From: Patescibacteria group bacterium
GTDB lineage: Bacteria > Patescibacteriota > Minisyncoccia > Moranbacterales > UBA2206
Direction of reading: 5' to 3'
DNA length: 64,000 bases
Assembly: GCA_030837625.1 (NCBI GenBank)
Contig: JAUPKF010000003.1
Coordinates: 1,596 to 65,595, forward strand
Every line of letters starts with the position of its first letter. Position 1 is the stretch's first letter. A program made the position numbers and the translations under genes. Below are positions 1,886 through 62,335 of this stretch, in pieces. Under the pieces are notes generated by a model, which saw only the letters and a program-made list of their open reading frames with translations, did not search any database and had not been told where the DNA came from.

Positions 1886-1995
1886 TGACCGATACGAATC
1901 TACGAATTTATTCGAATTCACAAATCTACGAATAGCTACGAATAAAAATTCGTAAATTCGCAGATTCGGATGCATTCGTTGATTCGAATCGCGTT
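1886..1995 (-). promoter_or_regulatory. Copy A of the ~110-bp repeated leader element, ending directly at the lexA start
   Basis: The reverse complement of 1886-1995 is about 95% identical to 25288-25397 and 28419-28530. The element is rich in ATTCG/TACGAA units. A TATAAT hexamer lies just upstream on the minus strand at ~2005-2010. Confidence 0.5.
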
Positions 1996-2084
1996 TATCG
2001 ATTATAATGATATCCTAGCACTGCTTCTTCATCACCGCAAGAGATGACTTATCCACAGCCCGCAAAAAAACGGGGAATCCCCGT

Positions 2085-2120
2085 TTTTCTGTTTTATGTT
2101 TCATGTTGCGTGTTTCATGC
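2085..2120. repeat. Hairpin built from tandem CATGAAA/TTTCATG units plus an adjacent GGGGATTCCCC terminator hairpin
   Basis: Sequence is tgttttatgtttcatgttgcgtgtttcatgc. The upstream aaaaacggggaatccccgttttt hairpin acts as an intrinsic terminator in both orientations. Confidence 0.5.
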
Positions 2121-3082
2121 TATTCCCCGCAGCTGCCGCCTTCAGCCGTCGCCGTTTCAACCCCAAGCACGGTAGCGCATTCCTCCGGCGCTTCATTGAA
2201 CGCGTTGCAAATCGCCTGCTTATAGCTCTCCGAATCGCCGTATTTACGCACCGCTTTGGTTGAAGATCCATTGATCATCATCGTCGGCGATCCGGTCGCT
2301 TTGGCGTCACCGGAAGATTTTTCGTCAGCTTGCATAAGTTTCAAGCCTTCAGAGGTTACGCAAGAATTAATTTTTGCGGTATCTATTGAAAGACTCTTCG
2401 CGCCATCCTCCCAACATAACCCGTCGCTGCCGCAGTTGGCATTGACATAGGTCACGAATTCCATCCATTTGTCCTTGCCGTAGTTTTTCATCACGCAAGC
2501 TTCTCTCTCGTTTTGCGCCACTTCTTTTTCGCCGTGTAGTGATTGTATCTTGCCGTCTTTTGTGTTGACAATGTAGCGGAAATTAAAATCGACTTTATTT
2601 TTCAAAAGCTCATACGCCGGCTTCAGAGTATCTTCGGCTTTGTTTCCGTACGGACAAAAGCTCATCACGTACAAATCGACTTGGGGCTTGTCGGATTTGG
2701 GAACATTTTTTTCCGCTTCTTCCTCGGCGGCCTTAGCTTCCACCGCCTTCTTTTCAGTTTCTTCTATATCCATCACGCTGGGAAAAAATTTCTTGCCATC
2801 CTTGGTCATATACGCCGTGATGCTCTGGCCGCTCACATCCAGTTCAAACTTATACAATCCGTTTTCTTCCGTAATATTCTTCACTTCCACCTTTGTCCCT
2901 GGTTGAACCAGGTTTTTGTCGATAAACTCCAAAGCTTTTATTTTGGCTTCTTCCGGTGTCAACTCTTCTGTTTTATCCTTTGAAGCCACATTCAAAAAAC
3001 CTGTCTTTCCCATATCCAGTTTATACCCCGCCATCAGCGCCGCTACAAAAACTATAGCCACGATCAGAAGTATCTTTTTCAT
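2120..3082 (-). CDS. Membrane-anchored thioredoxin-fold (DsbA-like) protein
   Basis: The 320-aa ORF has an N-terminal TM helix. The C-terminal region has a thioredoxin-fold-like segment containing ...YVMSFCPYGNKAED.... The second active-site Cys is not obvious, so the product call is tentative. Confidence 0.45.
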   Translation of the reverse strand: MKKILLIVAIVFVAALMAGYKLDMGKTGFLNVASKDKTEELTPEEAKIKALEFIDKNLVQPGTKVEVKNITEENGLYKFELDVSGQSITAYMTKDGKKFFPSVMDIEETEKKAVEAKAAEEEAEKNVPKSDKPQVDLYVMSFCPYGNKAEDTLKPAYELLKNKVDFNFRYIVNTKDGKIQSLHGEKEVAQNEREACVMKNYGKDKWMEFVTYVNANCGSDGLCWEDGAKSLSIDTAKINSCVTSEGLKLMQADEKSSGDAKATGSPTMMINGSSTKAVRKYGDSESYKQAICNAFNEAPEECATVLGVETATAEGGSCGE

Positions 3083-3087
3083 AATTT

Positions 3088-3180
3088 ATAGAACATGAAA
3101 CATACAACATGAAACATAAACCATAAAAACAGTGATCTTTTTTTATGTTACGTGTTATGTGTTACGCGTTATGTGATTCA
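3088..3180. repeat. Intergenic hairpin region built from CATGAAA and CACGTAA-type tandem units
   Basis: Sequence is aacatgaaacatacaacatgaaacataaacc ... gttacgtgttatgtgttacgcgttatgtg. The arms can pair with G:U wobbles. Confidence 0.5.
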
Positions 3181-3224
3181 GTTACCGTCCAATCATACAC
3201 CAGTATTTATTTTTAGGCAAAAAA

Positions 3225-3266
3225 AGAGGGAGCCTTCGTATGCGCGATGCGTACACGATGCTCCCA
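3225..3266 (-). terminator. Intrinsic terminator for the 3313..3636 gene
   Basis: On the minus strand the sequence reads GGGAGC-aucguguacgcaucgcgcauacgaag-GCUCCC followed by UCUUUUUUU. Confidence 0.55.
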
Positions 3267-3312
3267 TGACTTGGTACATTTCGTATTCACCTTGTTAACT
3301 CCTTTCTGCCCG

Positions 3313-3636
3313 CTATGCGTAGGCTCCCGCTGACCGATGCGAACTGAATCGATCAATTGGGTTTTGGATTAAAAAAACTTCGATCTCGTGGGCAGGCGGT
3401 CGCTCGGGAGAAAGACACATACTCCTATACTTGCAAGTTACTTGGTCGCAATAGCCATTTGACCTGCCAAAGCACGGAAAATTTTTCTCCCGTTCCTGCC
3501 TGGCTCTGTAAATTGGCACTAGTGCCAATACAATATGAACCGGACAAAGGCCATCGGTGAACCCATCTTCAGGATTACCATTACCCCACGTCCTGCCACA
3601 AAAGAAACATCTACTCTTGGGATTCAACCCGTTCAT
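3313..3636 (-). CDS. Small Cys-rich (rubredoxin-/zinc-ribbon-like) protein of unknown function, with atypical composition
   Basis: The 107-aa ORF has a strong SD (ggcAAGGAGGatgccATG). It contains CFFCG...(18 aa)...LCPVH, which resembles a rubredoxin knuckle pair, plus further Cys residues. The protein is R/G/P/C-rich, unlike the K/E/I-rich neighbours. It is followed by its own terminator. Confidence 0.4.
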   Translation of the reverse strand: MNGLNPKSRCFFCGRTWGNGNPEDGFTDGLCPVHIVLALVPIYRARQEREKNFPCFGRSNGYCDQVTCKYRSMCLSPERPPAHEIEVFLIQNPIDRFSSHRSAGAYA

Positions 3637-4045
3637 GGCATCCTCCTTGCCAAAAAAAGTTGAAAGCCTTCCACCAAACTGCTTCGCTTCAAAAGACTAA
3701 AAATAATCTCCTGAAATCAAGCAGTTTGGCTCGCCCCGACGTTATTCTTTGGGGCTTATATGAGGCACAACTTATGCCAGTTTTTCAAAGAGCTATTTTC
3801 TACCCCGAACGCTCTATTATAGCACATTTTGAAGAAAAAAGCAAATAAAAAAGGCCACGCCTAAGTGTGCCTCCGAAATGACAACGTTACTTTTTTCCGC
3901 AAAAAGTATCCCATGCCAGTAAATTAAAATTTATGTTTATTTTAATCCCCGTCGATTACCTGCTATTTGATTCAAAATGTCCTGACTTCCCGTTTCTCTA
4001 TTATATAAAACCAAGAGATACGCGCAAGGAAAGTTATCCACAACC

Positions 4046-4112
4046 ACTTTACGAACTACGAAATAAGCAAAATACGAAACGTTGAAACACCGTTTCGTAT
4101 TTTCGTAGTTCA
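4046..4112. repeat. Perfect hairpin of TACGAA units immediately after the uvrB stop (terminator-like)
   Basis: Sequence is gaactacgaaataagcaaaatacgaaacg-ttgaaacac-cgtttcgtattttcgtagttc, then further tttcgtatttcgtaa. Confidence 0.55.
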
Positions 4113-4113
4113 T

Positions 4114-6201
4114 TTATTTCGTATTTCGTAAAACCTGTAATTTTCTTAACTCCCCAATTTCATCTCTTATAATAGCCGCGCGCTCAAACTGAAGACTGCG
4201 CGCGGCGTCTTTCATTTCTTTTTCTTTTTGCTTGATATATCCACTGATATCTTCCAAAGTTTCCAACTCGGTAAAATCGCGCGAAACTTGCGGGTTGATT
4301 TCGTGGTCGACGATCGATTGGATTTTCTTTTTTATCGTGCGCGGAGTAATTTTATGTTTCCGGTTATATTCCATCTGCAACGCGCGCCGCCTATTTGTCT
4401 CATCAATGGCTCGGCGCATCGAACCGGTTACGGAATCGGCGTAAAGAATGACTTTTCCCCGCACGTTCCGAGCCGCCCGCCCGATAGTTTGAATGAGCGA
4501 TGTTTCGCTGCGCAAAAAACCTTCCTTGTCGGCGTCGAGAATCGCTACCAGTGACACTTCCGGCAAGTCCAAGCCTTCCCGAAGAAGATTTACCCCAACC
4601 AAAACATCAAATTCCCCGCGTCTGAGCTTTTCCAGAATTCTTATCCGGTCCAAAGTATCCACACCGCTATGCAAGTATTCCGCTTTTACTTTCGACTCTT
4701 TGAGAAAATCCGAAAGATCCTCGGCCATTTTTTTGGTCAGAGTTGTAATGAGCACCCGTTCTTTGCGCGCGATTATTTCCTTGATTTCCTCCGTCACGTC
4801 CTTCACCTGTCCTCTGGTCGGCTTTATCTCCAGCTCCGGATCAATCAATCCCGTCGGCCGAATGATTTGTTCTACCACGCCCGGTGGATTTGAATTTGGG
4901 ATTTTGGATTTGGGATTTTGGATTTGGGATTTAAGAACTTCGTAATTACCCGGGGTAGCTGATACAAATATAGCTTTATTTATTTTACGCTCAAACTCAT
5001 CAAATCTTAACGGTCTGTTGTCAAACGCGCTCGGCAAACGAAAACCGTTTTCCACTAAAGAAACTTTCCGCGAATGATCGCCATTGTACATCCCATTGAG
5101 CTGGGGAACCGTCACGTGCGATTCATCGATAACTAAAAGAAAATCCTTGGCGAAATAATCAATGAGAGTATACGGCGCTTCGCCCGGCGCGCGATCAGTA
5201 AGAAAACGAGAATAGTTTTCAATGCCGTTGCAATAGCCGATTTCGCGCATCATCTCAATGTCTTGCCTGGTTCGGCGTCGCAAACGCTCCGCCTCCAAAA
5301 GTTTATTTTGTTTTTTCAAATATTCCACTCTCTCATCCAGTTCTTTTTCGATTTCACCCATCGCGCTTTCCATCACTGGTTCGGGCACCACGAAATGTTT
5401 GGCGGGATAAATGACCGCTTTTTGCAAGTTTCCCAGCTCTTCCCCTGTCAAAAAATCATACTCGACAATCTTACTGATTTTATCTCCTACCATAGATACT
5501 CGCGTTATTACTTCCCGCCCGGGCGTCATAATTTCTAAAGTCGGACCAGTCAGACGGAATTTCCCACGCAAAAGAACATCACTGCGAGCATACTGCATAT
5601 CGATTAATTTTTTCACAATTTCATCCCTGCTCATCCGTAGGGGCGGTTCATGAACCGCCCCTACGCCGTGGCTGACAGCCAATTCCAACGTGATATCCCG
5701 ATAATATTCCGGACTGCCCAAACCGTATATGCAAGAAACCGAGGCGCAAATAATCACGTCTTTTCGCGCCATCAAAGCGGCCGTGGCGGCATGGCGCAAA
5801 CGGTCGATCTCGTCGTTAATCTGCGATTCTTTCTCGATGTAAGTGTCAGTGGAAGCAATGTAGGCTTCCGGCTGATAATAGTCATAGTACGACACGAAAT
5901 ATTCCACGGCGTTTTTTGGAAAAAATGTCCGGAACTCCTGCGCCAATTGCGCCGCCAGGGTCTTGTTGGGCGCGATGACCAACGTCGGTTTTTGCGTTTT
6001 CTCAATAACATTGGCAATCGTAAAAGTCTTCCCCGACCCCGTCACGCCCAAAAGCGTCTGGAATTTTTGATTATTTTCCAAACCCTTCACCAACTGCGAA
6101 ATCGCCCTTGGCTGATCACCTTCGGGTTTGAACTTGGAATTTATTTTAAAAATATTATTTATAGTTTTCCCTGTGTTACGTGTTACGCGACCCTCCTCCA
6201 A
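4114..6201 (-). CDS. uvrB: Excinuclease ABC subunit B (UvrB)
   Basis: The 695-aa ORF has the Walker A motif [11 protein letters not shown], UvrB helicase motifs and a C-terminal UvrB/UvrC interaction region. The true start may lie a few codons downstream of 6201. An in-frame low-complexity insertion is present (see the repeat at 4884-4936). Confidence 0.95.
4884..4936. repeat. In-frame tandem repeat (GGATTTTGGATTTGG)n inside uvrB
   Basis: Sequence is ggtggatttgaatttgggattttggatttgggattttggatttgggatttaag. It encodes ...[17 protein letters not shown]... inside UvrB. Confidence 0.7.
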
Positions 6202-8142: not shown

Positions 8143-8505
8143 ATGAGTTTTATGAAAATTATTCTTCACATCATCGCTAACGGCTTGGCCATTCTAGCGG
8201 CCGATTATATCGTCCCGGGCTTTTCTTTTAACGGATCCTGGAAAGAACTTTTGCTGGCGGGAGCCGTTTTGGGGATAGCCAATTCTTTGATAAAACCGAT
8301 CCTGACCCTTTTGACTTTCCCGCTGATTTTCTTGACTTTGGGACTTTTCGCCATAATAATCAACATAGCCATGCTTTTCCTGACCGCTCGCCTGGTGCCA
8401 GCGATTTCTATCAGCGGCTTTCTAGCGGGAGTGGGAGCGCTCATCATAATCAGTTTGGTCAACCACCTAATTTTCCACTTTGCCAAAGATGATAAAAAGG
8501 ATTAG
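8143..8505 (+). CDS. DUF360/holin-4-like small membrane protein (YvlD-like)
   Basis: The 120-aa ORF has four predicted TM segments and a sequence pattern typical of the DUF360 family. Confidence 0.55.
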   Translation: MSFMKIILHIIANGLAILAADYIVPGFSFNGSWKELLLAGAVLGIANSLIKPILTLLTFPLIFLTLGLFAIIINIAMLFLTARLVPAISISGFLAGVGALIIISLVNHLIFHFAKDDKKD

Positions 8506-8514
8506 AATAACTCA

Positions 8515-13194: not shown

Positions 13195-13282
13195 GTTACG
13201 AAATACGAAATTAACGAAATACGAAAGTACGAAAAGGATTGGCACGAAGGTTTCGTATTTCGTTAATTTCGTAGTTCGTAAA
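13195..13282. repeat. Hairpin of TACGAA/TTCGTA tandem units between the amidohydrolase and guaA
   Basis: Sequence is ggttacgaaatacgaaattaacgaaatacgaaagtacgaaaagg...ggtttcgtatttcgttaatttcgtagttcgtaa. Confidence 0.55.
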
Positions 13283-15103
13283 TTACTCCCACTCCACCGT
13301 TCCCGGCGGCTTATTGGTAATGTCATAAAAGACATAACCGATTTCCCCAGTCGCAACTATCTTCCCGACAATTTTATCAAGAACTTTTAAGTCCATCTCA
13401 TAAAAATTAAGCGTCATGGCGTCCCGCGAATTGATCGGGCGAAGAACAATCGACTCCCTTCCCCGCTCATCAACAATCGGAATGAGCACCACGGGAAATT
13501 GCCAGATAGCGCCGTAAATCCCGGCTGATTTGATTATGCCGTTCACAATGCCGTCAATGCGCCGCAACTTATCCACCCGGTCTTTGGAAAGATCTAGGCT
13601 GTTTTCAGAAATACTGAATTCAGGCGCGCCCGCGCCGGGATTTGCCAGCAGCAGCACTCGATTGACGGCCCGCACGCTATTTGTGGCCGCCACCGATATC
13701 TCTGAAAGTTTTTTCCAATCGCGCGCTCCCCAAACCGCCAGCGGATGGGCATACGTCCTGTTGTCCCCTTGAACTCCGACGGATTTTATCGGCAAAACTT
13801 CAAAATTTATATTCGGAAACTTTTTGCTGAATAAATCGGCCGTCAAATTCCTTGCTTCTCTTGTGCCCTCTTTCGGCAACTTGGCGTCCAAACATAAACA
13901 ACGAATCGCCAGTCCCGGACCCGGAAAAGGGTGCCGCTCCACAAGGTCTTTCGGCAGTCCCAAAAGATTGCCGAGCGAGCGCACTTCGTCTTTGTAAAAT
14001 TCTACCAGCGGTTCAACCACCAGCCCCTTCTTGACCATTTCTTGAATCGCGTCCACCCGATTGTGATGGGTTTTGATTTTGTCGGCGTGCTTGGTCGCGC
14101 CGGATTCGATCGTATCCGGGTAAATTGTCCCTTGCCCCAAAAGCCACTCATCCGGATTAAGGCCCAAATCTTCGATAAGTTTGTCTTTCACATCTAAAAA
14201 AGCGGCTCCGATGATTTTTCGTTTCTCCTCCGGCTCGTAAACGTTTTTCAACCTTTGATAAAATATTTTACTGGCGTCAATACTCCTGATATTGTCAAAA
14301 TCGACTTTCTTAAAGCCAGCCTGTATCTCTTCCGATTCTTTGGAGCGCATAAATCCGGTATCGATATAAAGCCCCCAAACCCGGTCTTTGCCTAACGCTT
14401 TCGTCAAAAGAGCAAAGGCGACGTTGGAATCCACGCCGCCGCTGCACAAAATAAAAACTTTTTTTTTGCCCGCTTGCGAGCGAATCTTTTCTTCAAGATC
14501 AGCCAAAAGATTGTCCGCTTTCCAGTTTTTTTCCGCGCCGCAAATATCCAACACGAAGTTGCTCAGCATTTTCACTCCTTCTTCGGTATGGGCCACTTCC
14601 GGATGAAATTGAAAACCGTATATTTTTTTCTTCTCGTCGGCCATGGCCGTTACCGGACAATCAGCGGTGGCGCCGATAATTTGGAAACCTTCCGGCGCTT
14701 TAGCCACCGCGTCACCGTGGCTCATCCATACTTGAGTCTTTCGAGAGACATTTTTGAATATGGCGCTTTCTCCCCGAACCGACAGTTCCGCCCAGCCAAA
14801 TTCCCGCGTCTTCCCGGGCTTCACTTCGCCGCCCAGCATCTGGCCAATAAGCTGATGGCCGTAGCAAAGGCCGAGAATCGGAACACCCATTTCAAAAATA
14901 TTTTGGTCTATTCTAATAGAGTCTTCGTCATAAACCGATTGCGGTCCGCCCGAAAGAATGATACCGATGACATTTTCCTTTTTCAGCTCCGCGGCCGCGG
15001 CGCCGTTGGAATAAATTTTCGCGAGCACGTTTTGCTCGCGAATAGTTCTGGCGATCAGATGGGTATATTGCGAACCAAAATCCAAGATGGCGATATGCTT
15101 CAT
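13283..15103 (-). CDS. guaA: GMP synthase (glutamine-hydrolysing), extended form
   Basis: The 606-aa ORF has an N-terminal class-I GATase (…LGLCYGHQL…) and an ATP-PPase SGGVDS motif (…FILCSGGVDSNVAF…). Confidence 0.95.
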   Translation of the reverse strand: MKHIAILDFGSQYTHLIARTIREQNVLAKIYSNGAAAAELKKENVIGIILSGGPQSVYDEDSIRIDQNIFEMGVPILGLCYGHQLIGQMLGGEVKPGKTREFGWAELSVRGESAIFKNVSRKTQVWMSHGDAVAKAPEGFQIIGATADCPVTAMADEKKKIYGFQFHPEVAHTEEGVKMLSNFVLDICGAEKNWKADNLLADLEEKIRSQAGKKKVFILCSGGVDSNVAFALLTKALGKDRVWGLYIDTGFMRSKESEEIQAGFKKVDFDNIRSIDASKIFYQRLKNVYEPEEKRKIIGAAFLDVKDKLIEDLGLNPDEWLLGQGTIYPDTIESGATKHADKIKTHHNRVDAIQEMVKKGLVVEPLVEFYKDEVRSLGNLLGLPKDLVERHPFPGPGLAIRCLCLDAKLPKEGTREARNLTADLFSKKFPNINFEVLPIKSVGVQGDNRTYAHPLAVWGARDWKKLSEISVAATNSVRAVNRVLLLANPGAGAPEFSISENSLDLSKDRVDKLRRIDGIVNGIIKSAGIYGAIWQFPVVLIPIVDERGRESIVLRPINSRDAMTLNFYEMDLKVLDKIVGKIVATGEIGYVFYDITNKPPGTVEWE

Positions 15104-15238
15104 AATTGAATGGTTAAATTGTTGGATTGCTAAACTGCTAAAAATAAATCGGCCATTTAGCCATTTAACAATTTAACAATTTTCACTGAAGACTTTACTA
15201 ACTCCCAACACTTCGCTAATATGTCTAATATTACTTAA

Positions 15239-16723
<1,485 letters not shown>

Positions 16724-16792
16724 CGTTGTGAACTATCCAACTATTACTTCTTGTAGTATAATCCAAGCATCTTTTATTTTTAAACCTAACTT

Positions 16793-18184
16793 ATGTACAG
16801 CGTCATACTTTGCGGCGGTTCGGGTTCGCGCCTGTGGCCGCTCAGCCGAAGAAACTATCCTAAGCAGTTTCTGAAGCTTTTTAGCGACCGCTCTCTCATT
16901 CAGGAAACCTATCTACGCATGCGCGCCCTTATGCCGGCCGACCATATATTTTTCATTACAAATTATGAGAGTTACTTCAATGTGGTCAATCAAATCAAGG
17001 AACTAGAAAACAGCTCCTTTAGCGAAAGCCGCGTGCTTATCGAACCGGAAAGCAGGAATACCGCCCCAGCCATCACTTTGGCGGTAAAATATTTGGAAGA
17101 AAAAGGCGGCGCAGAGAAGGATGATCCGATTATGTTTTTACCGTCCGACCATTACATTGCCAATCTTGAAGATTATCTGACGGTGGTAAAAAACGCCTAC
17201 CAAAACGTCGGTAGCTATTTGGGAACCATCGGTATCACTCCGACCCGGCCGGACACCGGCTATGGTTACATAAAAAAGGGAGAGGACCGAAAGAAATTCT
17301 TCACCGCCTCCGAATTTAAGGAAAAGCCTGACAAAGAAACCGCTGAAAAATATGTGAAAAGCGGCCAGTATGTTTGGAACAGCGGCAGCTATATTTTTAC
17401 GCCCGAAACTTATTGGAAAGAGCTTTCCCTCCATACTCCTGAAATTCACGAAATCGCCGGCAAAGGATTTGAAAACCTTAAGGAAAACTTTTCTTTCCTG
17501 CCTTCTATCTCAATTGATTACGCCATATCGGAAAAGTCCCAAAACATTGTCATCTTCGAGGGCGATTTCGGTTGGAGCGATATCGGTTCATTTGAAAATT
17601 TGAGCGAAATACAGGGGAAAAATAACTCCACTCGAACGGTTGAAATTGACTCGGAGAATGTTTACGCTCTCTCCGCCGGAAACAAGCTTATCGCCGCGGT
17701 AGGAGTCAAAGATCTGGTTATCGTAGAAAACACCGACAGCATCCTGGTCCACCAAAAGGGTCATGGGCAAGATGTCAAGAAAGTCGTTGATTATTTAAAA
17801 GAGAACAAAATGGCCGAAGTGGAGCACAACATCATCGTCCATCGACCTTGGGGAGAATATGAAATTATGACCAGCGACACCAATTATCAAGTAAAACGAC
17901 TGACTGTTTATCCTCAGGCAAAACTGAGCCTCCAATCTCACCGCCATCGCGCGGAGCACTGGGTAGTCGTAAAAGGCACCGCCACGATAGTTAACGGCGA
18001 CAAGGAAATAGTTCTTAAAGAAAACGAAAGTACCTATATTCCCGTCGGCCATAAGCACCGCCTTGGAAATCAAAGCGACAAAAACTTGGAAATCATCGAA
18101 GTGCAAACCGGAGATTATCTTGGCGAAGACGACATCGTCCGCTATGACGATGTCTACAACCGCGACAAAAACCCCGCTAATTAA
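16793..18184 (+). CDS. manC: Mannose-1-phosphate guanylyltransferase / mannose-6-phosphate isomerase (bifunctional, with a C-terminal cupin)
   Basis: The 463-aa ORF starts with an N-terminal NTP-transferase motif (MYSVILCGGSGSRLWPLS). It has a C-terminal cupin region (…WGEYEIM…HRHRAEHWVVV…). Confidence 0.85.
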   Translation: MYSVILCGGSGSRLWPLSRRNYPKQFLKLFSDRSLIQETYLRMRALMPADHIFFITNYESYFNVVNQIKELENSSFSESRVLIEPESRNTAPAITLAVKYLEEKGGAEKDDPIMFLPSDHYIANLEDYLTVVKNAYQNVGSYLGTIGITPTRPDTGYGYIKKGEDRKKFFTASEFKEKPDKETAEKYVKSGQYVWNSGSYIFTPETYWKELSLHTPEIHEIAGKGFENLKENFSFLPSISIDYAISEKSQNIVIFEGDFGWSDIGSFENLSEIQGKNNSTRTVEIDSENVYALSAGNKLIAAVGVKDLVIVENTDSILVHQKGHGQDVKKVVDYLKENKMAEVEHNIIVHRPWGEYEIMTSDTNYQVKRLTVYPQAKLSLQSHRHRAEHWVVVKGTATIVNGDKEIVLKENESTYIPVGHKHRLGNQSDKNLEIIEVQTGDYLGEDDIVRYDDVYNRDKNPAN

Positions 18185-18259
18185 CGGCATTTATTGCTCT
18201 ATAACGCCAAAACATCTCTCGTTTCACGTTAAGAGTTTTGCGATTTACGCCTGGTGCCC

Positions 18260-20808: not shown

Positions 20809-20855
20809 CAGATCACAAGGGTAATTTTAACATAACTTTAAAAATTCTCCCATAC

Positions 20856-20884: not shown

Positions 20885-20890
20885 TAAATC

Positions 20891-26300: not shown

Positions 26301-26305
26301 AAATA

Positions 26306-46152: not shown

Positions 46153-46306
46153 AGAATTGTGATTTTGATTTTATTATTTATTAATGCCCGAGAGCTCGAC
46201 CCAACCCCCAGAAAGTTTGTAAAGTTGCAAGTTTATCAAGTTATAAAGCAAACTAGCTTTACAACTTTGCAACTTTACAACTTTATAAACTTTATAACTT
46301 TATAAA
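46153..46306. repeat. Hairpin built from AACTTT/AAAGTT tandem units
   Basis: Sequence is gaaagtttgtaaagttgcaagtttatcaagttataaag-caaactagc-tttacaactttgcaactttacaactttataaactttataactttataaac. Confidence 0.55.
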
Positions 46307-46854: not shown

Positions 46855-46941
46855 TCCTTACGAATTACGAATTGGTACGAATGTAACGAAGTACGAATCC
46901 TTTTTTCGTACATTCGTAAATGTTCGTAATTCGTAAGGATT
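46855..46941. repeat. Hairpin of TACGAA/TTCGTA units
   Basis: Sequence is ccttacgaattacgaattggtacgaatgtaacgaagtacgaatcc-ttttttcg-tacattcgtaaatgttcgtaattcgtaagg. Confidence 0.55.
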
Positions 46942-47490
46942 TCAGCATGTTAACCAGTAGAATACACTGCTCAGTATTCCAAGGACTATCACCGGCACGA
47001 CAACTTTTTGGAATGGGAAATACACTTTGCCTCCGTTTTTCTTTTTCAAAAAATCATTAAGATAAACAGCCGTCAAAAAAAGCGCGCTGCCAAAAATAAT
47101 TCCCAGCAGCAGCTTGTCAACTCCCCAGATCTTATTGAAAGGATGTCCAATAAGCCCTTGCCAATAAAGCGGAATAATGATCACCGCGTAATATGCCGCC
47201 GTCAGCGATATCTTCCGTCCTTTAAATTTGATATTATTACTTTCCAGCCACGCCACAGTCCAAGCTATCATTGACACAATCAAACCGCCGATCCAAATTC
47301 CGCTAATCGTATCGTCGATGCCGAAATATTGCGCCAGCCCCACGCACGCTCCCACCGCCACCGTGCAAACCGGACAAACCGCTTGGGCGGGAAAAGAAGA
47401 AAGAAGAAAGAAGAGAGAAGAAAGAAGAAAGAATCCGTATTTTGTTATCTTTGAAAATTTGAGCATCTTAATTTGAATCTTTAGTATCAC
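46942..47490 (-). CDS. Polytopic membrane protein with a CxxC pair (CPVCTVAVGAC)
   Basis: The 182-aa ORF has five or so TM helices. The (CTT)n-rich tract at ~47395-47440 codes the N-terminal hydrophobic stretch. Confidence 0.4.
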   Translation of the reverse strand: MILKIQIKMLKFSKITKYGFFLLSSLFFLLSSFPAQAVCPVCTVAVGACVGLAQYFGIDDTISGIWIGGLIVSMIAWTVAWLESNNIKFKGRKISLTAAYYAVIIIPLYWQGLIGHPFNKIWGVDKLLLGIIFGSALFLTAVYLNDFLKKKNGGKVYFPFQKVVVPVIVLGILSSVFYWLTC

Positions 47491-48024: not shown

Positions 48025-48357
48025 TTAGAATCGGTCTCTTCGTCCGCCAAATCCGCCTCGGTCATTTCCGCGTCCGCCTCCGAACCCACCGGTTCTCTTA
48101 GGACGGTCTTCCATCGGTCGGGCTTCGTTTACGGTCAGAGATCTTCCTTCATACTCTTTTCCGTTAAACATTTCGATAGCCTTTTGAGCGTCGTCGTCGT
48201 TAGCCATCTCGACAAATCCAAATCCTTTGGATCGTCCTGACATTTTGTCATTGATGATAACAGCAGACTGAACAGCTCCGGCTTGTGAAAAATACTCATT
48301 AAGAGCATCTTCCGTCACATTGTAGGACAAGTTGCCTACGTACAGCTTTTGTGCCAT
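48025..48357 (-). CDS. RRM-type RNA-binding protein with a C-terminal RGG/Gly-rich tail
   Basis: RNP-2 is LYVGNLSY and RNP-1 is KGFGFVEM. The tail is GGFGGGRGNDRGGFGGRR. The 5' UTR is long. Confidence 0.85.
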   Translation of the reverse strand: MAQKLYVGNLSYNVTEDALNEYFSQAGAVQSAVIINDKMSGRSKGFGFVEMANDDDAQKAIEMFNGKEYEGRSLTVNEARPMEDRPKRTGGFGGGRGNDRGGFGGRRDRF

Positions 48358-48673: not shown

Positions 48674-48767
48674 TCCGCGGTAGCTTCAGCCGTAGGCTGA
48701 TCAGCCTTTGGCTGACAATGGTAGAGCAGTTTCCGCCGTAGGCGGACCAGCCTATGGCTGGGACTGT
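48674..48767 (+). pseudogene. Decayed partial copy of tRNA-Asn (5' part through the anticodon), interrupted by two 30-nt dual-hairpin insertions
   Basis: The decayed copy reads TCCGCGGTAGCT[TCAGCCGTAGGCTGATCAGCCTTTGGCTGA]CAATGGTAGAGCAGTT[TCCGCCGTAGGCGGACCAGCCTATGGCTGG]GACTGT. The intact gene at 49034 reads TCCGCGGTAGCTCAATGGTAGAGCAGTTGACTGTTAATC.... The 5' flank tattCCGCGG is identical in both. Confidence 0.7.
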
Positions 48768-48783: not shown

Positions 48784-49029
48784 ATGTTTATCGTTTATAT
48801 TTTACGCAGTTTAAAAAATAAAAAAAAATACACTGGTCAAACTTCAAAAGACGTTTTCAAAAGGTTATCAGAACACAATAGAAATTGCAATAAATGGACA
48901 AAAGAAAATGGTCCATTTAAGCTGATTCATTTTGAAGAATATCCATCAAGGACAGAGGCTATAAAAAGAGAACGTTTTTTGAAGTCTGGTCAAGGCAGAA
49001 AATGGCTGGATGAAAATATTAAAAACTAA
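48784..49029 (+). CDS. GIY-YIG nuclease-family small protein (YhbQ/COG2827-like)
   Basis: The 81-aa ORF reads MFIVYILRSLKNKKKYTGQTSKDVFKRLSEHNR..., with GIY...YTG and R..EHN motifs. It sits between the partial and the intact tRNA-Asn. Confidence 0.75.
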   Translation: MFIVYILRSLKNKKKYTGQTSKDVFKRLSEHNRNCNKWTKENGPFKLIHFEEYPSRTEAIKRERFLKSGQGRKWLDENIKN

Positions 49030-54451: not shown

Positions 54452-54497
54452 CTTAAAAAAAACACGCCTGCCGGCGCGTTTTTTCTGATTTTTTATT

Positions 54498-58098: not shown

Positions 58099-58518
58099 TT
58101 AATCTTCCCGCCCGATTTTCCAGATCGTGATTTGCACGAATGTCGCTGTGCCGGCCATAGCCATAATCAAAAGAAAATACCAAAACAACGGATGCGCGAA
58201 ATACAAAAAGAAAGTTACCAGCGCCATCCACACTCCCGTGCACCAAGGACAGTCAATCAGATGCCACAAAGTTCTCCCCGGTCCGCTTTCAAATTTCGCC
58301 AGATAATCCCGAACAAAATCCGTCACCATATCATACGTGAAAAGACGAATCAATCGGTACGTCGCCAAGATCAAAATCACAAAATCAAAAACGGGAATGT
58401 TCTTTGTCAATTTCCCCTGCGAATTCAAAAAAACTATCGCTAAAGCGACAAGTAGGATATACAACGACGAAGAAAACATATGCCAAAAATGCTGGTCGGA
58501 CTTGCTGGAATTTTCCAT
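58099..58518 (-). CDS. Membrane protein with a CPWC motif (DUF1360-like)
   Basis: The 139-aa ORF has four TM helices and a ...LIDCPWCTGVW... motif. Confidence 0.4.
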   Translation of the reverse strand: MENSSKSDQHFWHMFSSSLYILLVALAIVFLNSQGKLTKNIPVFDFVILILATYRLIRLFTYDMVTDFVRDYLAKFESGPGRTLWHLIDCPWCTGVWMALVTFFLYFAHPLFWYFLLIMAMAGTATFVQITIWKIGRED

Positions 58519-58641
58519 AGGTTTTGTTTTATCTGTTTATTCCATACCTACTACAAACCGCAAAGCCTTATATTTCCCGGAAACAAAAAGAGGCGAAGTC
58601 CGATGATTCGAACTCCGCCCTTTGGCCAGAAAAAACTGACC

Positions 58642-58845
58642 CTAATATTCCATCCTCATAACGCCCACGTTCAACTGAGCTTCCTCAAGCGCCTCTTTAA
58701 TATCACAGTTCAACCCTTCCGGAACATTGTCCAGAACGATTTTTTTGTGTCCGAAATGTATAAAACACTCAGGCGCAACTTTGTGAAGCGCGGAACGAAC
58801 CAACGCCTCGCTATAGCCGTCAGGCATAGAAATTACAATCGACAT
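58642..58845 (-). CDS. Small protein A of the small-ORF cluster (67 aa)
   Basis: Strong SD (gcggAAAGGAGGatg). It overlaps ORF B by 13 nt. Confidence 0.45.
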   Translation of the reverse strand: MSIVISMPDGYSEALVRSALHKVAPECFIHFGHKKIVLDNVPEGLNCDIKEALEEAQLNVGVMRMEY

Positions 58846-59057
58846 TCATCCTCCTTTCCGCTAAGAATATTAGCCACACATTCCCTCATTTCCAAGGACA
58901 TTGAAACTTTTTCCCGTGCTGTAACGAGAACAGCTGACATTATTTCTCTCTCCAGAGAAGATCCAGACGCCCAAGCGTCCCTAATCCCGCTAGGATTCTC
59001 GGCCTTTACACAGTTGGTCAACCTTACCACATTACGAGAATTAAGATCGTACAACAT
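58833..59057 (-). CDS. Small protein B of the cluster (74 aa)
   Basis: Strong SD (caaatAAGGAGGtggcATG). Confidence 0.45.
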   Translation of the reverse strand: MLYDLNSRNVVRLTNCVKAENPSGIRDAWASGSSLEREIMSAVLVTAREKVSMSLEMRECVANILSGKEDECRL

Positions 59058-59073
59058 GCCACCTCCTTATTTG

Positions 59074-59256
59074 TTAGTTGCCCTTTCTTCTTATCGACAT
59101 TCTGCCCGATACTCGATTGGATTTTCCGACCCTGAATCCAACCGGACTTTTCTTTGGAGGAATATTGAAAACAACCTCCAATAACTCAACCGCTTCTCCA
59201 TTGCGTTCAACGAAGATTATTTCCCTGCCTGATTCTGTTTGTCTCATTTTTGTCAC
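59074..59256 (-). CDS. Small protein C of the cluster (60 aa, basic C-terminus)
   Basis: An SD AAAGGAGG lies upstream. The start may be a GTG slightly upstream of the track ATG. Confidence 0.35.
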   Translation of the reverse strand: MTKMRQTESGREIIFVERNGEAVELLEVVFNIPPKKSPVGFRVGKSNRVSGRMSIRRKGN

Positions 59257-59514
59257 CGCACTTCCTCCTTTTTAAAGAACTGCCATTGCTATTGCCAAAA
59301 AATAACAACTAAAAAGCCGGCCCAGATGGCCGACTTTGGTTTTTTGAAAATTCTACTGAATCTTACGCTTTTATTTCCACGAAACCAAAACCGGCCTTCC
59401 GGATAAACCAGGAGAAGAAATAAAAGAAGCTATAGAGGTTTTGGCTCGCTGAAATTTTCATACTAAAAGTCTATCATCCTGAAAAAATCTGTCAAGCTGG
59501 CATAAAAAATATCG

Positions 59515-59540
59515 GGCGATCGCGTGGCGATCGCCCTAGT
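59515..59540 (-). terminator. Perfect GC-rich palindrome GGGCGATCGC-gtg-GCGATCGCCC, a terminator after small ORF D
   Basis: The hairpin is followed on the minus strand by gauauuuuuuaug. Confidence 0.5.
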
Positions 59541-59547
59541 GAACTGA

Positions 59548-59718
59548 TCAATTGCCGATTTCGTCCGGACGAAATTCGCCCGAAACAACGCCAGCCGTAG
59601 CCCCGAAAGAGCTTCCTTTGGCTTCTTCCTTTGAAACCTTTTTCTCATCGGGTGTTGCGACAACAGCCTTGCAGGGCTCCCCATACTTGTAGCTTTTCGC
59701 CTCTTCTTGCCTCATCAT
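59548..59718 (-). CDS. Small protein D of the cluster (56 aa), not in the ORF track
   Basis: My own translation gives MMRQEEAKSYKYGEPCKAVVATPDEKKVSKEEAKGSSFGATAGVVSGEFRPDEIGN, with an SD AAAAGGA upstream. The track ORF 59463..59684 is in a different frame and lacks an SD. Confidence 0.4.
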   Translation of the reverse strand: MMRQEEAKSYKYGEPCKAVVATPDEKKVSKEEAKGSSFGATAGVVSGEFRPDEIGN

Positions 59719-59730
59719 CTCATCCTTTTC

Positions 59731-59916
59731 TTATCGCGTTGCTTCAACTCTGTTGCCCTCCCCTCGACAAACAGGGATGTTAAGAACTTTCTCTCTCAAT
59801 GTTCTGCACGCCTTAGTGTTTGATTTAAGGGTGCACCTAGGATTCTGCTTGCGACAACCCCATATACAATCAAGGTCATTCGCCCAATTCGTTGCCTTTT
59901 TATGAGCGTCCATCAT
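59731..59916 (-). CDS. Small Cys-rich protein E of the cluster (61 aa)
   Basis: SD ggagAAAAGGAGAatgatg. It has six Cys residues (…DCIWGCRKQNPRC…KAC…VC…). Confidence 0.45.
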   Translation of the reverse strand: MMDAHKKATNWANDLDCIWGCRKQNPRCTLKSNTKACRTLREKVLNIPVCRGEGNRVEATR

Positions 59917-60208
59917 AATTCTCCTTTTCTCCGCGTCTTTGCGCGACGTTAAAGAACTTCAAAAAGAACTACTTCCTAAAAAAACAAAATCCCGCCTGAG
60001 TTGGGCGAGTGGTTCGGCTTTGATTTTGAGAAACTTCCTATCCTCCAATCAAAACGCAAACACCCGCGCGAGACGGGATATTATTGTTCTGATTATTGTT
60101 TCGAACGTTTCTCATAATTTGAGTTTACTCCAAAAGTATTTTTTGTCAAATCCGCCCATAAAAAAGAGGCGGCCACGTGGGACCGCCTGCAAAGCAGGAA
60201 GTGGGTAG

Positions 60209-60439
60209 CTAGGTAATCAACTCCACCGCCGCCTTTCCATCTTCCCTTGGTGAATGCATCATCCCCCGTGGACAGTAATATTTAACAACTTGCCCAAGAC
60301 GGACAAACTCCTCCATTTTTTCTCCACATTCAGGACAAACATGGTCATCTTGTCGAATACTTTCGCACAAATCACCCAAGATTCCCCAGGCGCCTTCGTA
60401 TAGTTCCGCAGGATTCAAGTCATCTTCTGGAAAGTACAT
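60209..60439 (-). CDS. Small zinc-ribbon protein F (76 aa)
   Basis: SD aaAGGAGGtttttctATG. The sequence has CPEC...(17 aa)...YCPRG. Confidence 0.5.
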   Translation of the reverse strand: MYFPEDDLNPAELYEGAWGILGDLCESIRQDDHVCPECGEKMEEFVRLGQVVKYYCPRGMMHSPREDGKAAVELIT

Positions 60440-60662
60440 AGAAAAACCTCCTTTTGAAAAATTTGTTTTACGTTGAAAACAAAACAGCCACCCCGTTGGT
60501 GGTTGTTACAATGAGCTATTTTTCTACACTATTTTACGAAACTCTAAAGACAACCACCGGGTGTTGGGTAAGCAACAACAACAATAGATTGTCTAATCGG
60601 TTTCGCATAGGGAAAGTTTATCATAAAAAATAAAAAATTGTCAAACATACAATTTGAGGGCA

Positions 60663-60694
60663 GGGACGCGGAAAGGATCTTCCGCGTCCCTGTT
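60663..60694. terminator. Perfect palindrome CAGGGACGCGGAAAGGATCTTCCGCGTCCCTG (bidirectional terminator-like)
   Basis: A 14-bp stem lies immediately downstream of small ORF G on the minus strand. It is followed on the plus strand by tttgtcattt. Confidence 0.5.
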
Positions 60695-60696
60695 TG

Positions 60697-60852
60697 TCAT
60701 TTCACAACGTTACTCTTGTCTTCTTTTTCTTCATCCTCCTCTATTTTTCTTTTTTGAGAGTTCTCAAAAATCTCATCCATCTTCCTCTCCGCAAGCGCGC
60801 GAAGAGTCAATGAAGGAGTAACGCCAAAAAAACTCATCAGCTCTTTCTCCAT
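60697..60852 (-). CDS. Small protein G (51 aa), not in the ORF track
   Basis: My own translation gives MEKELMSFFGVTPSLTLRALAERKMDEIFENSQKRKIEEDEEKEDKSNVVK, with an SD AAAGGAGAAAAGGA. It starts 12 nt after the stop of H. Confidence 0.4.
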   Translation of the reverse strand: MEKELMSFFGVTPSLTLRALAERKMDEIFENSQKRKIEEDEEKEDKSNVVK

Positions 60853-60864
60853 TCCTTTTCTCCT

Positions 60865-61017
60865 TTACCCGCACCACAGATAGCGCGGGTCTCTGTCTGG
60901 TCCCGGACACTCGAGATCGGGTTTCTCTTCTTCCTCAACCCAATCTCCATAAATCTTTTCAATCGCTCCAGCCGACAGCTCGACCCGAAGCTTTTTCACT
61001 TTCTTCTCTTCGGCCAT
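60865..61017 (-). CDS. Small protein H (50 aa), not in the ORF track
   Basis: My own translation gives MAEEKKVKKLRVELSAGAIEKIYGDWVEEEEKPDLECPGPDRDPRYLWCG, with an SD gaAAGGAGGgcgggctATG. Confidence 0.4.
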   Translation of the reverse strand: MAEEKKVKKLRVELSAGAIEKIYGDWVEEEEKPDLECPGPDRDPRYLWCG

Positions 61018-61290
61018 AGCCCGCCCTCCTTTCGTATTTTTAAGAACTATTCGCTCTTATTCGCTATCATTCGCTCTGCTTTCGCGAATAAAAAACCGAC
61101 GGGGTTCCGTCGAGTTCATTTTGCTTTCAACTTTTGAAACCAAAATCAACCCGACGTCCGTCGGATAATAATGTCCATAATAATGTTATTTGACCTCATA
61201 TTCATTACAATTTTGAGATTCGTATCGAAAAAATAATAATTTTTATTGGACGAGGAGCTTCTGACGAAACATGAAACCCCCCGAGGTCTT

Positions 61291-61518
61291 CTACGGTAAC
61301 CTGATTCTTCTCTCCAGCCGCCCCTCGAAATTGGGAATCACCTGGTTTTGCAACTGATACATCCTGCTCTCAACTTTGACCTTTTCGGCGGGAGCAAGCA
61401 GCAGACTCTTAAGTCTGTGTTCGAGAATCTTTACTTCATTTTGCGAAGCCGTTATCACACTCCGCAAGTGGTTGACGTCCTTGTGTTTCTTTCTTTTCGC
61501 CTGATATTCACTTCCCAT
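61291..61518 (-). CDS. Small basic protein I (75 aa)
   Basis: SD cGGAGGAGGagttATG. It is followed on the minus strand by a terminator hairpin (CGACGGaaccCCGTCG plus a U run, at ~61095-61120). Confidence 0.45.
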   Translation of the reverse strand: MGSEYQAKRKKHKDVNHLRSVITASQNEVKILEHRLKSLLLAPAEKVKVESRMYQLQNQVIPNFEGRLERRIRLP

Positions 61519-61597
61519 AACTCCTCCTCCGTAAAAGTATGAAAAGCGAGGGGAAAGCGAAGAATCCGCTTTCCCCGCAAAAAGAGTGCGTACGAGA

Positions 61598-61831
61598 TTA
61601 GATGTCTCTCGCCATTATCGGTTCTCGCGGACCAATATGGCGAATGTAACCAGGTTTGAGAGGTGGCATTTTCAAAAGCGGCGGAAGCTTCGTTTCGCTC
61701 ACAAGTTGGGCTTCCTGCTTTTCCTGTTTCTTCTTTTTTTGCTCGTTAAGTGCTAACTCAACGAGACTTTCCGCCAGCCCCTCTTTGTGGCCGGCACCAA
61801 ACATGCCGACTTCAAAATCCATCGGTACCAT
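61598..61831 (-). CDS. Small protein J (77 aa)
   Basis: SD aagAAGGAGGttttATG. The C-terminus has a ...KLPPLLKMPPLKPGYIRHIGPREP... segment. Confidence 0.45.
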   Translation of the reverse strand: MVPMDFEVGMFGAGHKEGLAESLVELALNEQKKKKQEKQEAQLVSETKLPPLLKMPPLKPGYIRHIGPREPIMARDI

Positions 61832-61974
61832 AAAACCTCCTTCTTTAAAAGTTGGATTGTTTTAGGTGTGACATCAGCCCTTGGCTAGATTTTCAGCCCC
61901 TTTTGGGAGAGCCGTAAATCCTGGAAAGATTTCTTAAATCCTCCCAATAGACGGTAACCGTCGCCAGGAATCTG

Positions 61975-62017
61975 CATGCCGGACGATAAATAACTTTTAC
62001 TTACCCTCCGGCATGCG
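61975..62017. repeat. 10-bp perfect inverted repeat GCATGCCGGA ... TCCGGCATGC with a 23-nt loop
   Basis: It lies in the intergenic region upstream of the small-ORF cluster, on the minus strand. A degenerate AGCCcttGGCT hairpin at ~61873-61886 resembles half of the 30-nt dual-hairpin module. Confidence 0.4.
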
Positions 62018-62255
62018 GATTTTCGAGATGCCAATCAACTTTTTCTCAAAGAACTACTTTTTACAAAAACAAAACCCAGTTTTTGCTGGGGTAATTTTTT
62101 TCTATTTCTTTTGCCAAACCCCAGCGAAAAATTATCGTCCAAAGACGACGGACAATACCTTGATGGTAATGTAATTTTTCACCGAGTTTTTCATGGCTGT
62201 AGGATAGCAGAATATCCAAAATCTGTCAAATGCTCCTTGTGGATAACCGGGATCA

Positions 62256-62335
62256 TGAAACATAAAGCACACAGCATGAAGCAAAAAAACACGCCTACTA
62301 AGACTCTCTATGTTACGTGTTACGTGTTACGTGTC
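62256..62335. repeat. CATGAAA plus GTTACGTG unit hairpin region downstream of rpoD
   Basis: Sequence is catgaaacataaagcacacagcatgaagcaaaaaaacacgcctactaagactctctatgttacgtgttacgtgttacgtgtc. Confidence 0.5.

Follow-up and report, generated by a model that had tools for sequence, protein, structure and literature searches.

Hairpins with tandem-heptamer arms in the intergenic spacers of a Moranbacteria-like Patescibacteria bacterium: anatomy, turnover and possible origin

Among the repeats described from bacterial intergenic DNA, the cyanobacterial STRR heptamers are intergenic period-7 repeats, and REP/BIME sequences and the Correia/NEMIS MITEs (miniature inverted-repeat transposable elements) are dispersed intergenic palindromes co-transcribed with the flanking genes, REPs acting as a 3' barrier and Correia elements being cut by RNase III. 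REPs measure 20-40 nucleotides (nt) and are accompanied by RAYT genes, and in Correia elements the terminal repeats are defined and TA is duplicated. RNase III sites also lie between the genes of phage T7. Bacterial stem-loop families have been surveyed (PMC2267715), and intergenic stem-loops of Clostridium set transcript ratios through selective RNA processing and stabilisation (PMC4423207). An excess of heptamers in the intergenic DNA of several bacterial phyla is known as well, without an accepted explanation (PMC4692102, citing a 2007 survey; PMC4679880). In Xanthomonas, GGGAATC arrays form 70-75 convergent inverted pairs per genome and are capable of stem-loops (Rehm et al. 2015, PMC4692102). 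In the Beggiatoaceae, TAACTGA arrays end 1 nt upstream of start codons, and some heptamer arrays lie in frame inside open reading frames (ORFs). In the 5' untranslated region of the Haemophilus influenzae hmw genes, an (ATCTTTC)n tract supplies one of the two arms of a long hairpin, which RNase III cuts and whose folding and processing affect expression and repeat-number change (PMC12721329). The present study concerns a 64,000-nt stretch (the window) of a Patescibacteria contig, Moranbacteria-like and of about 44% G+C, in which many intergenic spacers hold long hairpins with arms of tandem short units, mostly heptamers. Its closest named relative is Candidatus Moranbacteria bacterium RIFOXYA12_FULL_44_15 (SSB 89% and LexA 95% identical). 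The SSB and GuaA of the window agree in full with proteins of an NCBI metagenome-assembled genome labelled "Patescibacteria group bacterium" (protein tag QG620_226).

The window shares the excess of period-7 intergenic arrays with the STRR, TAACTGA and Geobacter heptanucleotide elements. Those are nearly all direct arrays (in Beggiatoa, 1 inverted among 170 sets), whereas paired hairpin arms are the rule here. As with GGGAATC of Xanthomonas, where repeat length varies by species and the type is preserved, intergenic tandem 7-mers stand in close pairs on opposite strands. Unlike the single G-rich unit there, which is capable of G-quadruplexes, many A/T-rich families coexist in one genome, the elements fill operon spacers next to starts, and dispersed copies share loops. 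The window has the period-7 excess of the heptameric-repeat class without the one characteristic unit per genome. The hmw hairpin also uses a heptamer array as an arm, but it stands alone as a phase-variable locus, has more than 10 units and pairs them with a non-repeat, G-rich tract; here both arms are arrays, the elements occur genome-wide and unit numbers are stable among strains. REP/BIME and Correia/NEMIS are likewise dispersed intergenic palindromes, although the present elements measure 70-150 nt and have repeat-built arms, and REP and Correia arms are not tandem 7-mers. The stem-loops of Clostridium and T7 resemble ours as strong hairpins between cistrons; theirs are single and non-repetitive with mapped processing sites. 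In none of the compared systems do many unit families per genome, paired arms as the rule, occupation of operon spacers and phylum-wide spread come together. No description of such elements in Patescibacteria was found in the full-text literature searched, within that collection only.

The heptamer-armed intergenic hairpins are real and far beyond chance. Arrays were located with Tandem Repeats Finder, arm pairing with an inverted-repeat finder and folding energies with RNAfold, and the gene map was drawn from Pfam and from reading of the sequence. Tandem Repeats Finder returned dozens of period-7 arrays; with arrays counted at 3 or more copies and at least 85% identity at the lag, the window holds 23 period-7 arrays against 0.4 in dinucleotide shuffles, and 1, 2 and 0 arrays with periods 6, 8 and 9, respectively. 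An ungapped long-stem finder (score at least 16), run on 9.8 kb of window spacers, returned 18 long stems against 0.03 in shuffles. It replaced sliding RNAfold energies over the whole window, which were dropped because G+C-richer coding DNA folds equally strongly. The control genome, 50 kb of E. coli, gave 0 arrays and 1 stem. The arms measure 17-57 nt and are 70-100% complementary, and they fold as single long hairpins at -30 to -50 kcal/mol. An initial annotation had described arms of tandem units and their complements; the loci that it listed were recovered by all three programs, and the stable folding that it had named as a check was found. The units are not merely the common hexamers of an AT-rich genome, because TACGAA/TTCGTA is 13.8-fold enriched in intergenic over coding DNA. 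A search of the window against Rfam 15 gave only transfer-messenger RNA (tmRNA) and two tRNAs at gathering score and no match for the elements. CRISPR and TIGR arrays (the latter as defined in PMC12045711) were ruled out, the units being 7-9 nt long without spacers, each locus being one palindrome and the neighbours being housekeeping genes. The two-armed elements are these.

1890-1991, minus strand: ATTCG 8-mer palindrome, copy 1; ends 9 nt before the lexA ATG, after a conserved promoter-like block, and is probably the lexA 5' leader.
3086-3176, unstranded: CAYRNAA hairpin, a CATGAAA/CATACAA arm against a TTACGTG/TTATGTG arm; separated by 3 nt from the downstream start of gene 2120-3082.
4048-4132, unstranded: TACGAAN-family hairpin; overlaps the uvrB stop codon.
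13196-13281, unstranded: TACGAAN-family hairpin in which 30 of 31 pairs are Watson-Crick; takes up the guaA-to-amidohydrolase spacer, beginning 1 nt past the stop and ending 8 nt short of the start.
15108-15182, unstranded: hairpin built of the 8-mer TTAACAAT; lies between the divergent guaA and guaB, 4 nt away from the guaA start.
24706-24805, unstranded: AGCGAAT-type palindrome that lies upstream of rpsF and runs into its annotated start; a different sister spacer has 38 nt in common with it.
25290-25391, plus strand: ATTCG 8-mer element, copy 2; fills the rpsF/ssb spacer, with a sister element at the same site.
25886-25975, unstranded: TACGAAN-family hairpin; fills the ssb/rpsR spacer.
26213-26301, unstranded: CAYRNAA hairpin; fills the rpsR/efp spacer and is absent in the sister, which has a 3-nt spacer there.
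27303-27393, unstranded: inverted copy of 26213-26301; supplies the last smpB codons and the stop, ends 4 nt before mature tmRNA and is absent in the sister.
28422-28522, plus strand: ATTCG 8-mer element, copy 3; fills the infC/rpmI spacer, with a sister element at the same site.
28731-28818, plus strand: CACGTAA x4 / TTATGTG hairpin; fills the rpmI/rplT spacer, with 26 Watson-Crick pairs and 4 G·U on the sense strand.
39727-39873, unstranded: hairpin of about 150 nt with outer arms of the 9-mer AATTAGGTG, between aminotransferase and Mur-ligase-like genes.
46212-46308, unstranded: AACTTTAN 8-mer hairpin with extra direct units, 3' of ORF 46307-46846.
46855-46939, unstranded: TACGAAT-type hairpin; occupies a tandem spacer from 2 nt past the stop to 8 nt short of the next start.
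62256-62335, unstranded: weak pair of CAYRNAA arms, one CATGAAA-type and one TTACGTG x3, immediately 3' of the sigma-70 gene.

These 64 kb contain at least seven families of units, namely CAYRNAA, TACGAAN, ATTCGNAN, AAAGTAN, AACTTTAN, TTAACAAT and AATTAGGTG. The three ATTCG copies are 94-96% identical to each other. Hairpins 26213-26301 and 27303-27393 are inverted copies with homologous loops, in keeping with their earlier description as mutual reverse complements (86% over 80 nt, loops included). Common arms are shared by 13196-13281, 25886-25975 and 4048-4132; among the TACGAAN copies the arms are conserved and the loops vary, and solo arms exist. The term REP-like is therefore apt in the sense of dispersed multi-copy palindromes, as the ATTCG copies and the shared TACGAAN arms show. 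Most coordinates of the initial annotation were correct, and several of its details needed revision. The TACGAA family stands as hairpins at 4048-4132, 13196-13281, 25886-25975 and 46855-46939, but its member at 23481-23522 is a one-armed direct array. The CACGTAA and CATGAAA loci exist, though as one degenerate family, CAYRNAA, rather than two; 3088-3130 and 3142-3176, noted as separate loci, are the two arms of one hairpin, and 62256-62290 and 62311-62335 are the arms of one weak hairpin (about -16 kcal/mol). The CATGAAA arrays at 2085-2119 and 20395-20419 are present and flank canonical terminators, and the TTTCTAC tract is the right arm (29227-29258) of hairpin 29151-29260. The AACTTT family forms a hairpin at 46212-46293 with direct units on to 46308, so that the start given at 46153 was wrong, and the TTAACAA tract at 15108-15182 is built of 8-mers. 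The 102-nt ATTCG palindrome in its three copies had been missed, as had 24706-24805, the 9-mer hairpin 39727-39873 and the in-frame arrays in uvrB, lgt and ORF 46942-47490.

Some observations attach to the ATTCG copies. The tips before lexA (1212-1880, minus strand) and ssb (25400-25882), at 1930-1950 and 25330-25350, read CGAAT-N4-ATTCG and resemble the Gram-positive LexA (Cheo) box CGAAC-N4-GTTCG; the rpmI-side copy has a degenerate tip. This likeness may be a coincidence, any palindrome tip being palindromic. Immediately upstream of the lexA copy lies the promoter-like block (…GTGCTA…TATAAT), which is conserved in the sister.

The hairpins had been proposed as a way of building terminators, a reading that a lack of enrichment at the 3' ends of genes was to weaken. 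Only three elements have a G+C-rich tip followed by a T-run, at 20375-20401, 29185-29208 and 2060-2090.

2060-2119, minus strand: canonical terminator of a GILT-like gene, CGGGGATTCCCCG plus a T-run; a one-sided CAYRNAA array at 2085-2119 precedes it on the sense strand.
20341-20419, unstranded: lies between the convergent RNase J gene and ORF 20422-20808; bidirectional terminator core 20375-20401, with CACGCAA x3 to its left and TCATGTT x3 to its right.
29151-29260, unstranded: bidirectional terminator (AAAAAATCCCCTCGGGGATTTTTT) with AAAGTAN / NTACTTT arrays as extensions; its left arm begins in the last rplT codons.

The heptamer stems themselves are A/T-rich, with loops of 9-59 nt and without T-runs, and ordinary terminators lacking heptamers serve other gene ends (e.g., 21936-21957 and in the spacer 54452-54497). 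About 40% of the window spacers of at least 40 nt hold elements, those of ribosomal-protein operons included. A stem or array was found in 15 of 36 tandem spacers of this size, in 3 of 8 divergent ones and in 2 of 6 convergent ones, which shows no enrichment at gene 3' ends. In two highly conserved bacterial operons each spacer holds a hairpin of about 90-110 nt, the order being rpsF, 25290-25391, ssb, 25886-25975, rpsR, 26213-26301, efp, smpB, 27303-27393, tmRNA in one and infC, 28422-28522, rpmI, 28731-28818, rplT, 29151-29260 in the other. These operon hairpins begin 1-8 nt past the stop and end 3-9 nt before the next start (4 nt before mature tmRNA), and spacer length minus hairpin amounts to 5-12 nt. 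Since the elements come this close to the next start, no room is left for a promoter, and we infer that such a hairpin at smpB/ssrA or rpmI/rplT cannot terminate efficiently. Rho-independent terminators built in a lineage-specific way could account for the three elements with a canonical core, and the prevailing order of an A-rich and then a T-rich arm mirrors bidirectional terminators. Against this stand the lack of convergent-spacer enrichment, the elements inside rpsF/ssb/rpsR, smpB/ssrA and infC/rpmI/rplT, the absence of a G+C-rich stem and T-run from most of them, the array-free terminators elsewhere and the 14 of 57 periodic hairpins in which the T-rich arm comes first. Overall, a terminator role for the elements at large is very improbable; most would not be terminators, and only those with a G+C-rich tip and T-run would terminate transcription.

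A scan for consensus promoters and terminators gave hits that scarcely exceed shuffles, and it yields no verdict on promoters within the arms. Shine-Dalgarno sequences are absent upstream of most window genes, where A/T-rich bases precede the ATG. Boxes of -10 type end about 7 nt before some ATGs, e.g., TATACT at 20879-20884 ahead of the class Ib tRNA synthetase gene at 20891, and their closeness to the ATG hints at leaderless mRNAs. The GTG "start" of the longest efp ORF, at 26270, falls inside hairpin 26213-26301, the real ATG being at 26303, and a spurious 92-residue ORF at 28477-28755 covers an ATTCG element and hides rpmI (28531-28728). The longest infC ORF (TTG 27759) overlaps the tmRNA gene; therefore, infC probably uses a later, unusual start. 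In addition, Logan contig L001, an independent short-read assembly identical to window positions 13256-21348, breaks inside hairpin 13196-13281, an arm of which is repeated at 25885-25912.

Comparison with a sister species showed that elements at the same gene junctions have been kept, gained, replaced or resized. Between the two, genes have 79% nucleotide identity and four-fold sites 54.5%. The best homologue found for guaA is 77% identical. In all-against-all spacer alignments A/T-rich low-complexity arrays align at 72-84% by chance, and only pairs with support from shuffle z-scores were used. The ssb/rpsR hairpin spacer was kept, with 87 of 100 positions identical and no net length change, and TACGAAN arms are 100% identical over 34-36 nt between two species, with differing loops. 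The ATTCG element occupies the same three sites in the sister (lexA leader, rpsF/ssb and infC/rpmI), where the rpsF/ssb and infC/rpmI copies are 97% alike; across the two genomes the match is limited to roughly the first 33 nt, with changes in both arms, which is a concerted change. Hairpins 26213-26301 and 27303-27393 were gained, the latter replacing the last smpB codons. In place of the rpmI/rplT element the sister has an unrelated spacer of equal length (96 nt). The arrays next to terminators vary in steps of full units: at 20341-20419 the sister keeps the core and two right-hand units (TCATGTT x2 against x3) and has no left array. In one array arm 5-6 units stand where the sister has about 2, and 3086-3176, two-armed in the window, is a one-armed nine-unit array there. 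At 29151-29260 the AAAGTAN unit is that of the last rplT codons, GAAAGTATAAAGTAG; the sister has the same codons and a terminator at the same place with no arrays on either side, and this element is one that grew in place around a terminator. Slippage, raised in the initial annotation as a possible mechanism, agrees with these differing unit counts and with a two-unit indel of 14 nt between two relatives (L082 vs L084). No change of unit number was seen among four sister assemblies, which differ by 2-3 single-nucleotide polymorphisms in 12.5 kb, and phase-variable loci were ruled out because these assemblies show no repeat differences.

The dispersed families (ATTCG, TACGAAN and CAYRNAA) might alternatively be non-autonomous elements of the MITE, Correia/NEMIS or REP-like kind, moved by an enzyme encoded elsewhere. 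Copies 94-97% alike at unlinked sites, conserved arms with variable loops, solo arms, identical arms in two species, and presence or absence at precise gene junctions would all suit such an origin; TAA/TA also flanks two of the three ATTCG copies, and IS5-type transposase fragments lie near one such sister site. However, the flanking TAA is the upstream stop codon, empty sister sites show no clear duplication, and a Pfam scan of about 70 window ORFs brought up neither a transposase nor a RAYT gene. The ATTCG element at the same three orthologous sites speaks for descent and homogenisation instead of repeated transposition, and some hairpins grew in place; we hold mobilisation of this kind to be unlikely. 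The transposase fragments (DDE_Tnp_1_2, DUF4096) stand beside a CAYRNAA array upstream of the GILT-like gene in the sister (L168, 2003-2883), and the corresponding place in the window has no transposase. Spread by phages was rejected, as two scans of viral contigs for arrays gave 0 and 1 match, the latter one-armed.

The style extends to other Patescibacteria, for which 80 GTDB guaA loci (1.2 Mb), a total of 1.64 Mb for stem counts and 80 metagenomic rplT loci were used. Of the arrays in the guaA loci, 94 have period 7, whereas 21 have period 6 and 8 have period 8. Both arms are periodic in 59 of 162 long stems in the 1.64 Mb, with period 7 in 45, period 8 in 7 and period 9 in 2, which upholds the earlier idea of a lineage-wide style. 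Units vary by genome, CAYRNAA, TACGAAN, AAAGCTA and AAATTTT being recurrent. Among the infC/rpmI and rpmI/rplT spacers of the rplT loci, 49 are short (median 23 nt) and 25 have a hairpin, whose stem begins, in the median, 6 nt past the stop and finishes 9 nt short of the start, 16 nt of spacer remaining once the hairpin is subtracted. Because of these two classes and the 16-nt residue, the hairpin looks like an insertion into an ordinary short spacer, and it is dispensable at these junctions. The A-rich arm is 5' in 43 of 57 periodic hairpins and the T-rich arm comes first in 14 (about 1e-4 by the binomial, for copies that are not fully independent); this layout, which is that of bidirectional terminators, suggests seeding at terminators or a link to transcription. 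Homologous spacers persist among distant pairs (z = 9-17 against shuffles) though synonymous sites are near saturation, and one-armed arrays are conserved just upstream of start codons, e.g., in L088/L101. In a relative whose LexA is 86% identical (L169, positions 3508-3840), a 120-nt hairpin of CATGGAA/CATAGAG heptamers, tipped by a canonical terminator, comes first; the conserved lexA promoter-like block follows, and after it a different leader hairpin, about 140 nt long and made of GCGTA-type 8-11-mers.

These data also bear on the possibility that the unit matters and not the hairpin, i.e., that a protein (a cold-shock OB-fold, a HutP-like ring or an RRM) binds in 7-nt register and competes with folding. 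CAYRNAA has fixed CA and AA positions and a variable centre, and in the other Patescibacteria loci it tops 120 column-permuted control motifs with 13 arrays against a median of 1, but the second-ranked control has 10 arrays, which makes its excess modest. The one-armed arrays conserved before starts and the conservation of arms as sequences fit such binding, CspB binds one protein per heptamer (PMC4679880), and the window has a gene for an RRM protein (48025-48357). On the other hand, a genome with at least seven unit families unrelated to each other would need many proteins or a very loose specificity, units turn over completely at the same site between close lineages, and no candidate protein is linked to the arrays. 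We consider binding of the unit improbable.

If RNA pairing were under selection, it should leave traces in the stems, and the earlier remark that they can also pair through G:U wobbles was borne out in single cases only. Hairpin 28731-28818 has 4 G·U and 0 A·C, its strands folding at -41.9 and -26.3 kcal/mol, yet the overall count is 50 G·T against 53 A·C. On sense strands G·U and A·C number 80 and 82 (35 vs 31 in window tandem spacers and 45 vs 51 in 25 operon hairpins of other genomes), and strand-specific selection for G:U was rejected. The arms of 3086-3176, 20341-20419 and 62256-62335 carry different variants of one motif, and an A·G mismatch is retained in 4 of 7 TACGAAN copies. Small alignments of homologous spacers gave 0-3 compensatory pairs, the repeat register making these alignments ambiguous. 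Because the stem mismatches show no sense-strand excess of G·U, it is not RNA pairing that has been maintained, and the arms behave as sequences produced and retained at the DNA level.

This symmetry weighs on another explanation, in which the hairpins are selected RNA elements at cistron boundaries, where processing by RNase III or a block to RNase J and 3' exonucleases would set the stability and amounts of mRNA segments. Their place exactly between stop and start in operons that need read-through favours it, as do stems of 30-44 bp, which is the size of RNase III substrates, the RNase J gene in the window, the precedents in H. influenzae (PMC12721329) and Clostridium (PMC4423207), the conservation of some elements well above synonymous sites, the 5' position of the A-rich arm in 43 against 14, and the lexA leader hairpin, which keeps its position in three species and not its sequence. 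The near-equal G·U and A·C counts tell against it, together with mismatches that are conserved and not compensated, the few compensatory pairs, the 49 of 74 distinct infC/rpmI and rpmI/rplT spacers that are short and unstructured, and the presence of elements in divergent spacers and inside genes. Selection of this kind is possible, but we would not call it probable.

Arrays without a partner arm, and arrays within genes, complete the catalogue.

20859-20887, plus strand: ATACATA array with one arm only, immediately upstream of gene 20891-21883 for the class Ib (Trp/Tyr-type) tRNA synthetase.
23481-23522, plus strand: one-armed array of ATTCGTA units, upstream of ychF; the sister retains part of it.
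34515-34541, minus strand: one-armed TAAGGTC/TTAGACC array in a 44-nt tandem spacer.
4885-4932, minus strand: TTTGGGA/AAATCCC in-frame array in uvrB, a 16-residue loop insertion at residues 424-439.
38265-38366, minus strand: in-frame 7-mer (ATTTTGA) and 9-mer (AATTAGGTG) arrays in lgt, a 34-residue insertion at residues 55-88.
47393-47433, minus strand: AAAGAAG array in ORF 46942-47490, residues 20-33.

The in-frame arrays add 14-34 low-complexity residues to UvrB, Lgt and the product of the one ORF. The 9-mer of lgt is also the unit in the arms of hairpin 39727-39873, 1.4 kb away.

The explanation that we favour, with a probability of about 0.5, is that the elements are palindromes of short tandem repeats produced by slippage and palindrome-forming copying and tolerated through fold-back in the mRNA. 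Replication slippage in a 7-nt register would make and resize the arrays. One flank of a hairpin would then be copied onto the other by intramolecular template switching, so that the complementary arm is made or repaired; correction of quasipalindromes by template switching is an established mechanism in E. coli. Finally, recombination or a putative mobilising enzyme would spread whole copies to new spacers. Fold-back in the mRNA would keep the stop and the next start only a few nt apart in space, and for this reason insertion would be nearly neutral in a compact genome without Shine-Dalgarno sequences. As in-frame arrays also lie inside uvrB, lgt and one ORF, arrays may arise everywhere and be filtered by selection. 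Long RNA stems are established substrates of RNase III and barriers to exonucleases. Stems of 30-44 bp would accordingly be cut by RNase III and would hinder RNase J and 3' exonucleases, and some elements may have been co-opted for processing or stability, which would explain conservation beyond neutrality.

Several observations weigh against this explanation. The identity of the ssb/rpsR spacer (87 of 100) far exceeds that of four-fold sites, TACGAAN arms are unchanged over 34-36 nt between genomes, and the L082/L084 and L125/L136 spacers are 89-92% identical at near-saturated synonymous sites. Conservation of this degree speaks for purifying selection or recent transfer and would not be expected of a wholly neutral by-product. 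The 5' position of the A-rich arm fits a role linked to transcription, although seeding by the A-tracts and T-tracts of terminators could also give it. The constancy of unit number in the four sister assemblies means that slippage is not fast, no template-switch event was observed directly, and the explanation does not account for a unit of 7 nt.

Two further regions of the window were of a different kind. At 48680-48767 lies a G+C-rich palindrome of 88 nt in another style, with CAGCCGTAGGCTGA-type sub-palindromes, directly upstream of a GIY-YIG protein gene (48784-49029, 81 residues), the RRM RNA-binding protein gene adjoining at 48025-48357 on the minus strand. Of this palindrome, 33 nt match positions 8229-8261 of sister contig L163, in the tmRNA-to-infC interval. 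The region 58480-62335 has about 3.8 kb without a plausible ORF above roughly 90 residues, its 234-residue ORF at 58480-59184 being of implausible sequence. Several small minus-strand ORFs there look genuine, e.g., a zinc-ribbon-like protein of 76 residues at 60209-60439. The idea of a large RNA in the ORF-poor 58.5-62.3 kb was dropped, since Rfam gave no match even at E <= 1 and the region looks like a cluster of small ORFs.

The same conserved junctions (rpsF/ssb/rpsR and infC/rpmI/rplT) carry no element, a one-armed array or a full hairpin according to the genome, and for this reason both the mutational process and any function are open to comparative study. In practice, the elements break short-read assemblies, create spurious ORFs and wrong starts, and can pass for terminators. 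A broader possibility, which we think quite unlikely, is that heptad-repeat palindromes are a general punctuation of gene boundaries in Patescibacteria, written and maintained by a dedicated process and read by RNase III and RNase J. The writer would be a palindrome-forming DNA transaction or a factor that reads the 7-nt register, and the two RNases would cut and stabilise single cistrons of polycistronic mRNAs lacking Shine-Dalgarno sequences; arm conservation and the concerted change at three orthologous sites would then reflect co-evolution with this machinery. If the hairpins are processing sites, they would form a major layer of expression control in organisms with very few transcription factors, and gene-boundary punctuation, if true, would offer an explanation for the heptamer-repeat excess of bacteria.

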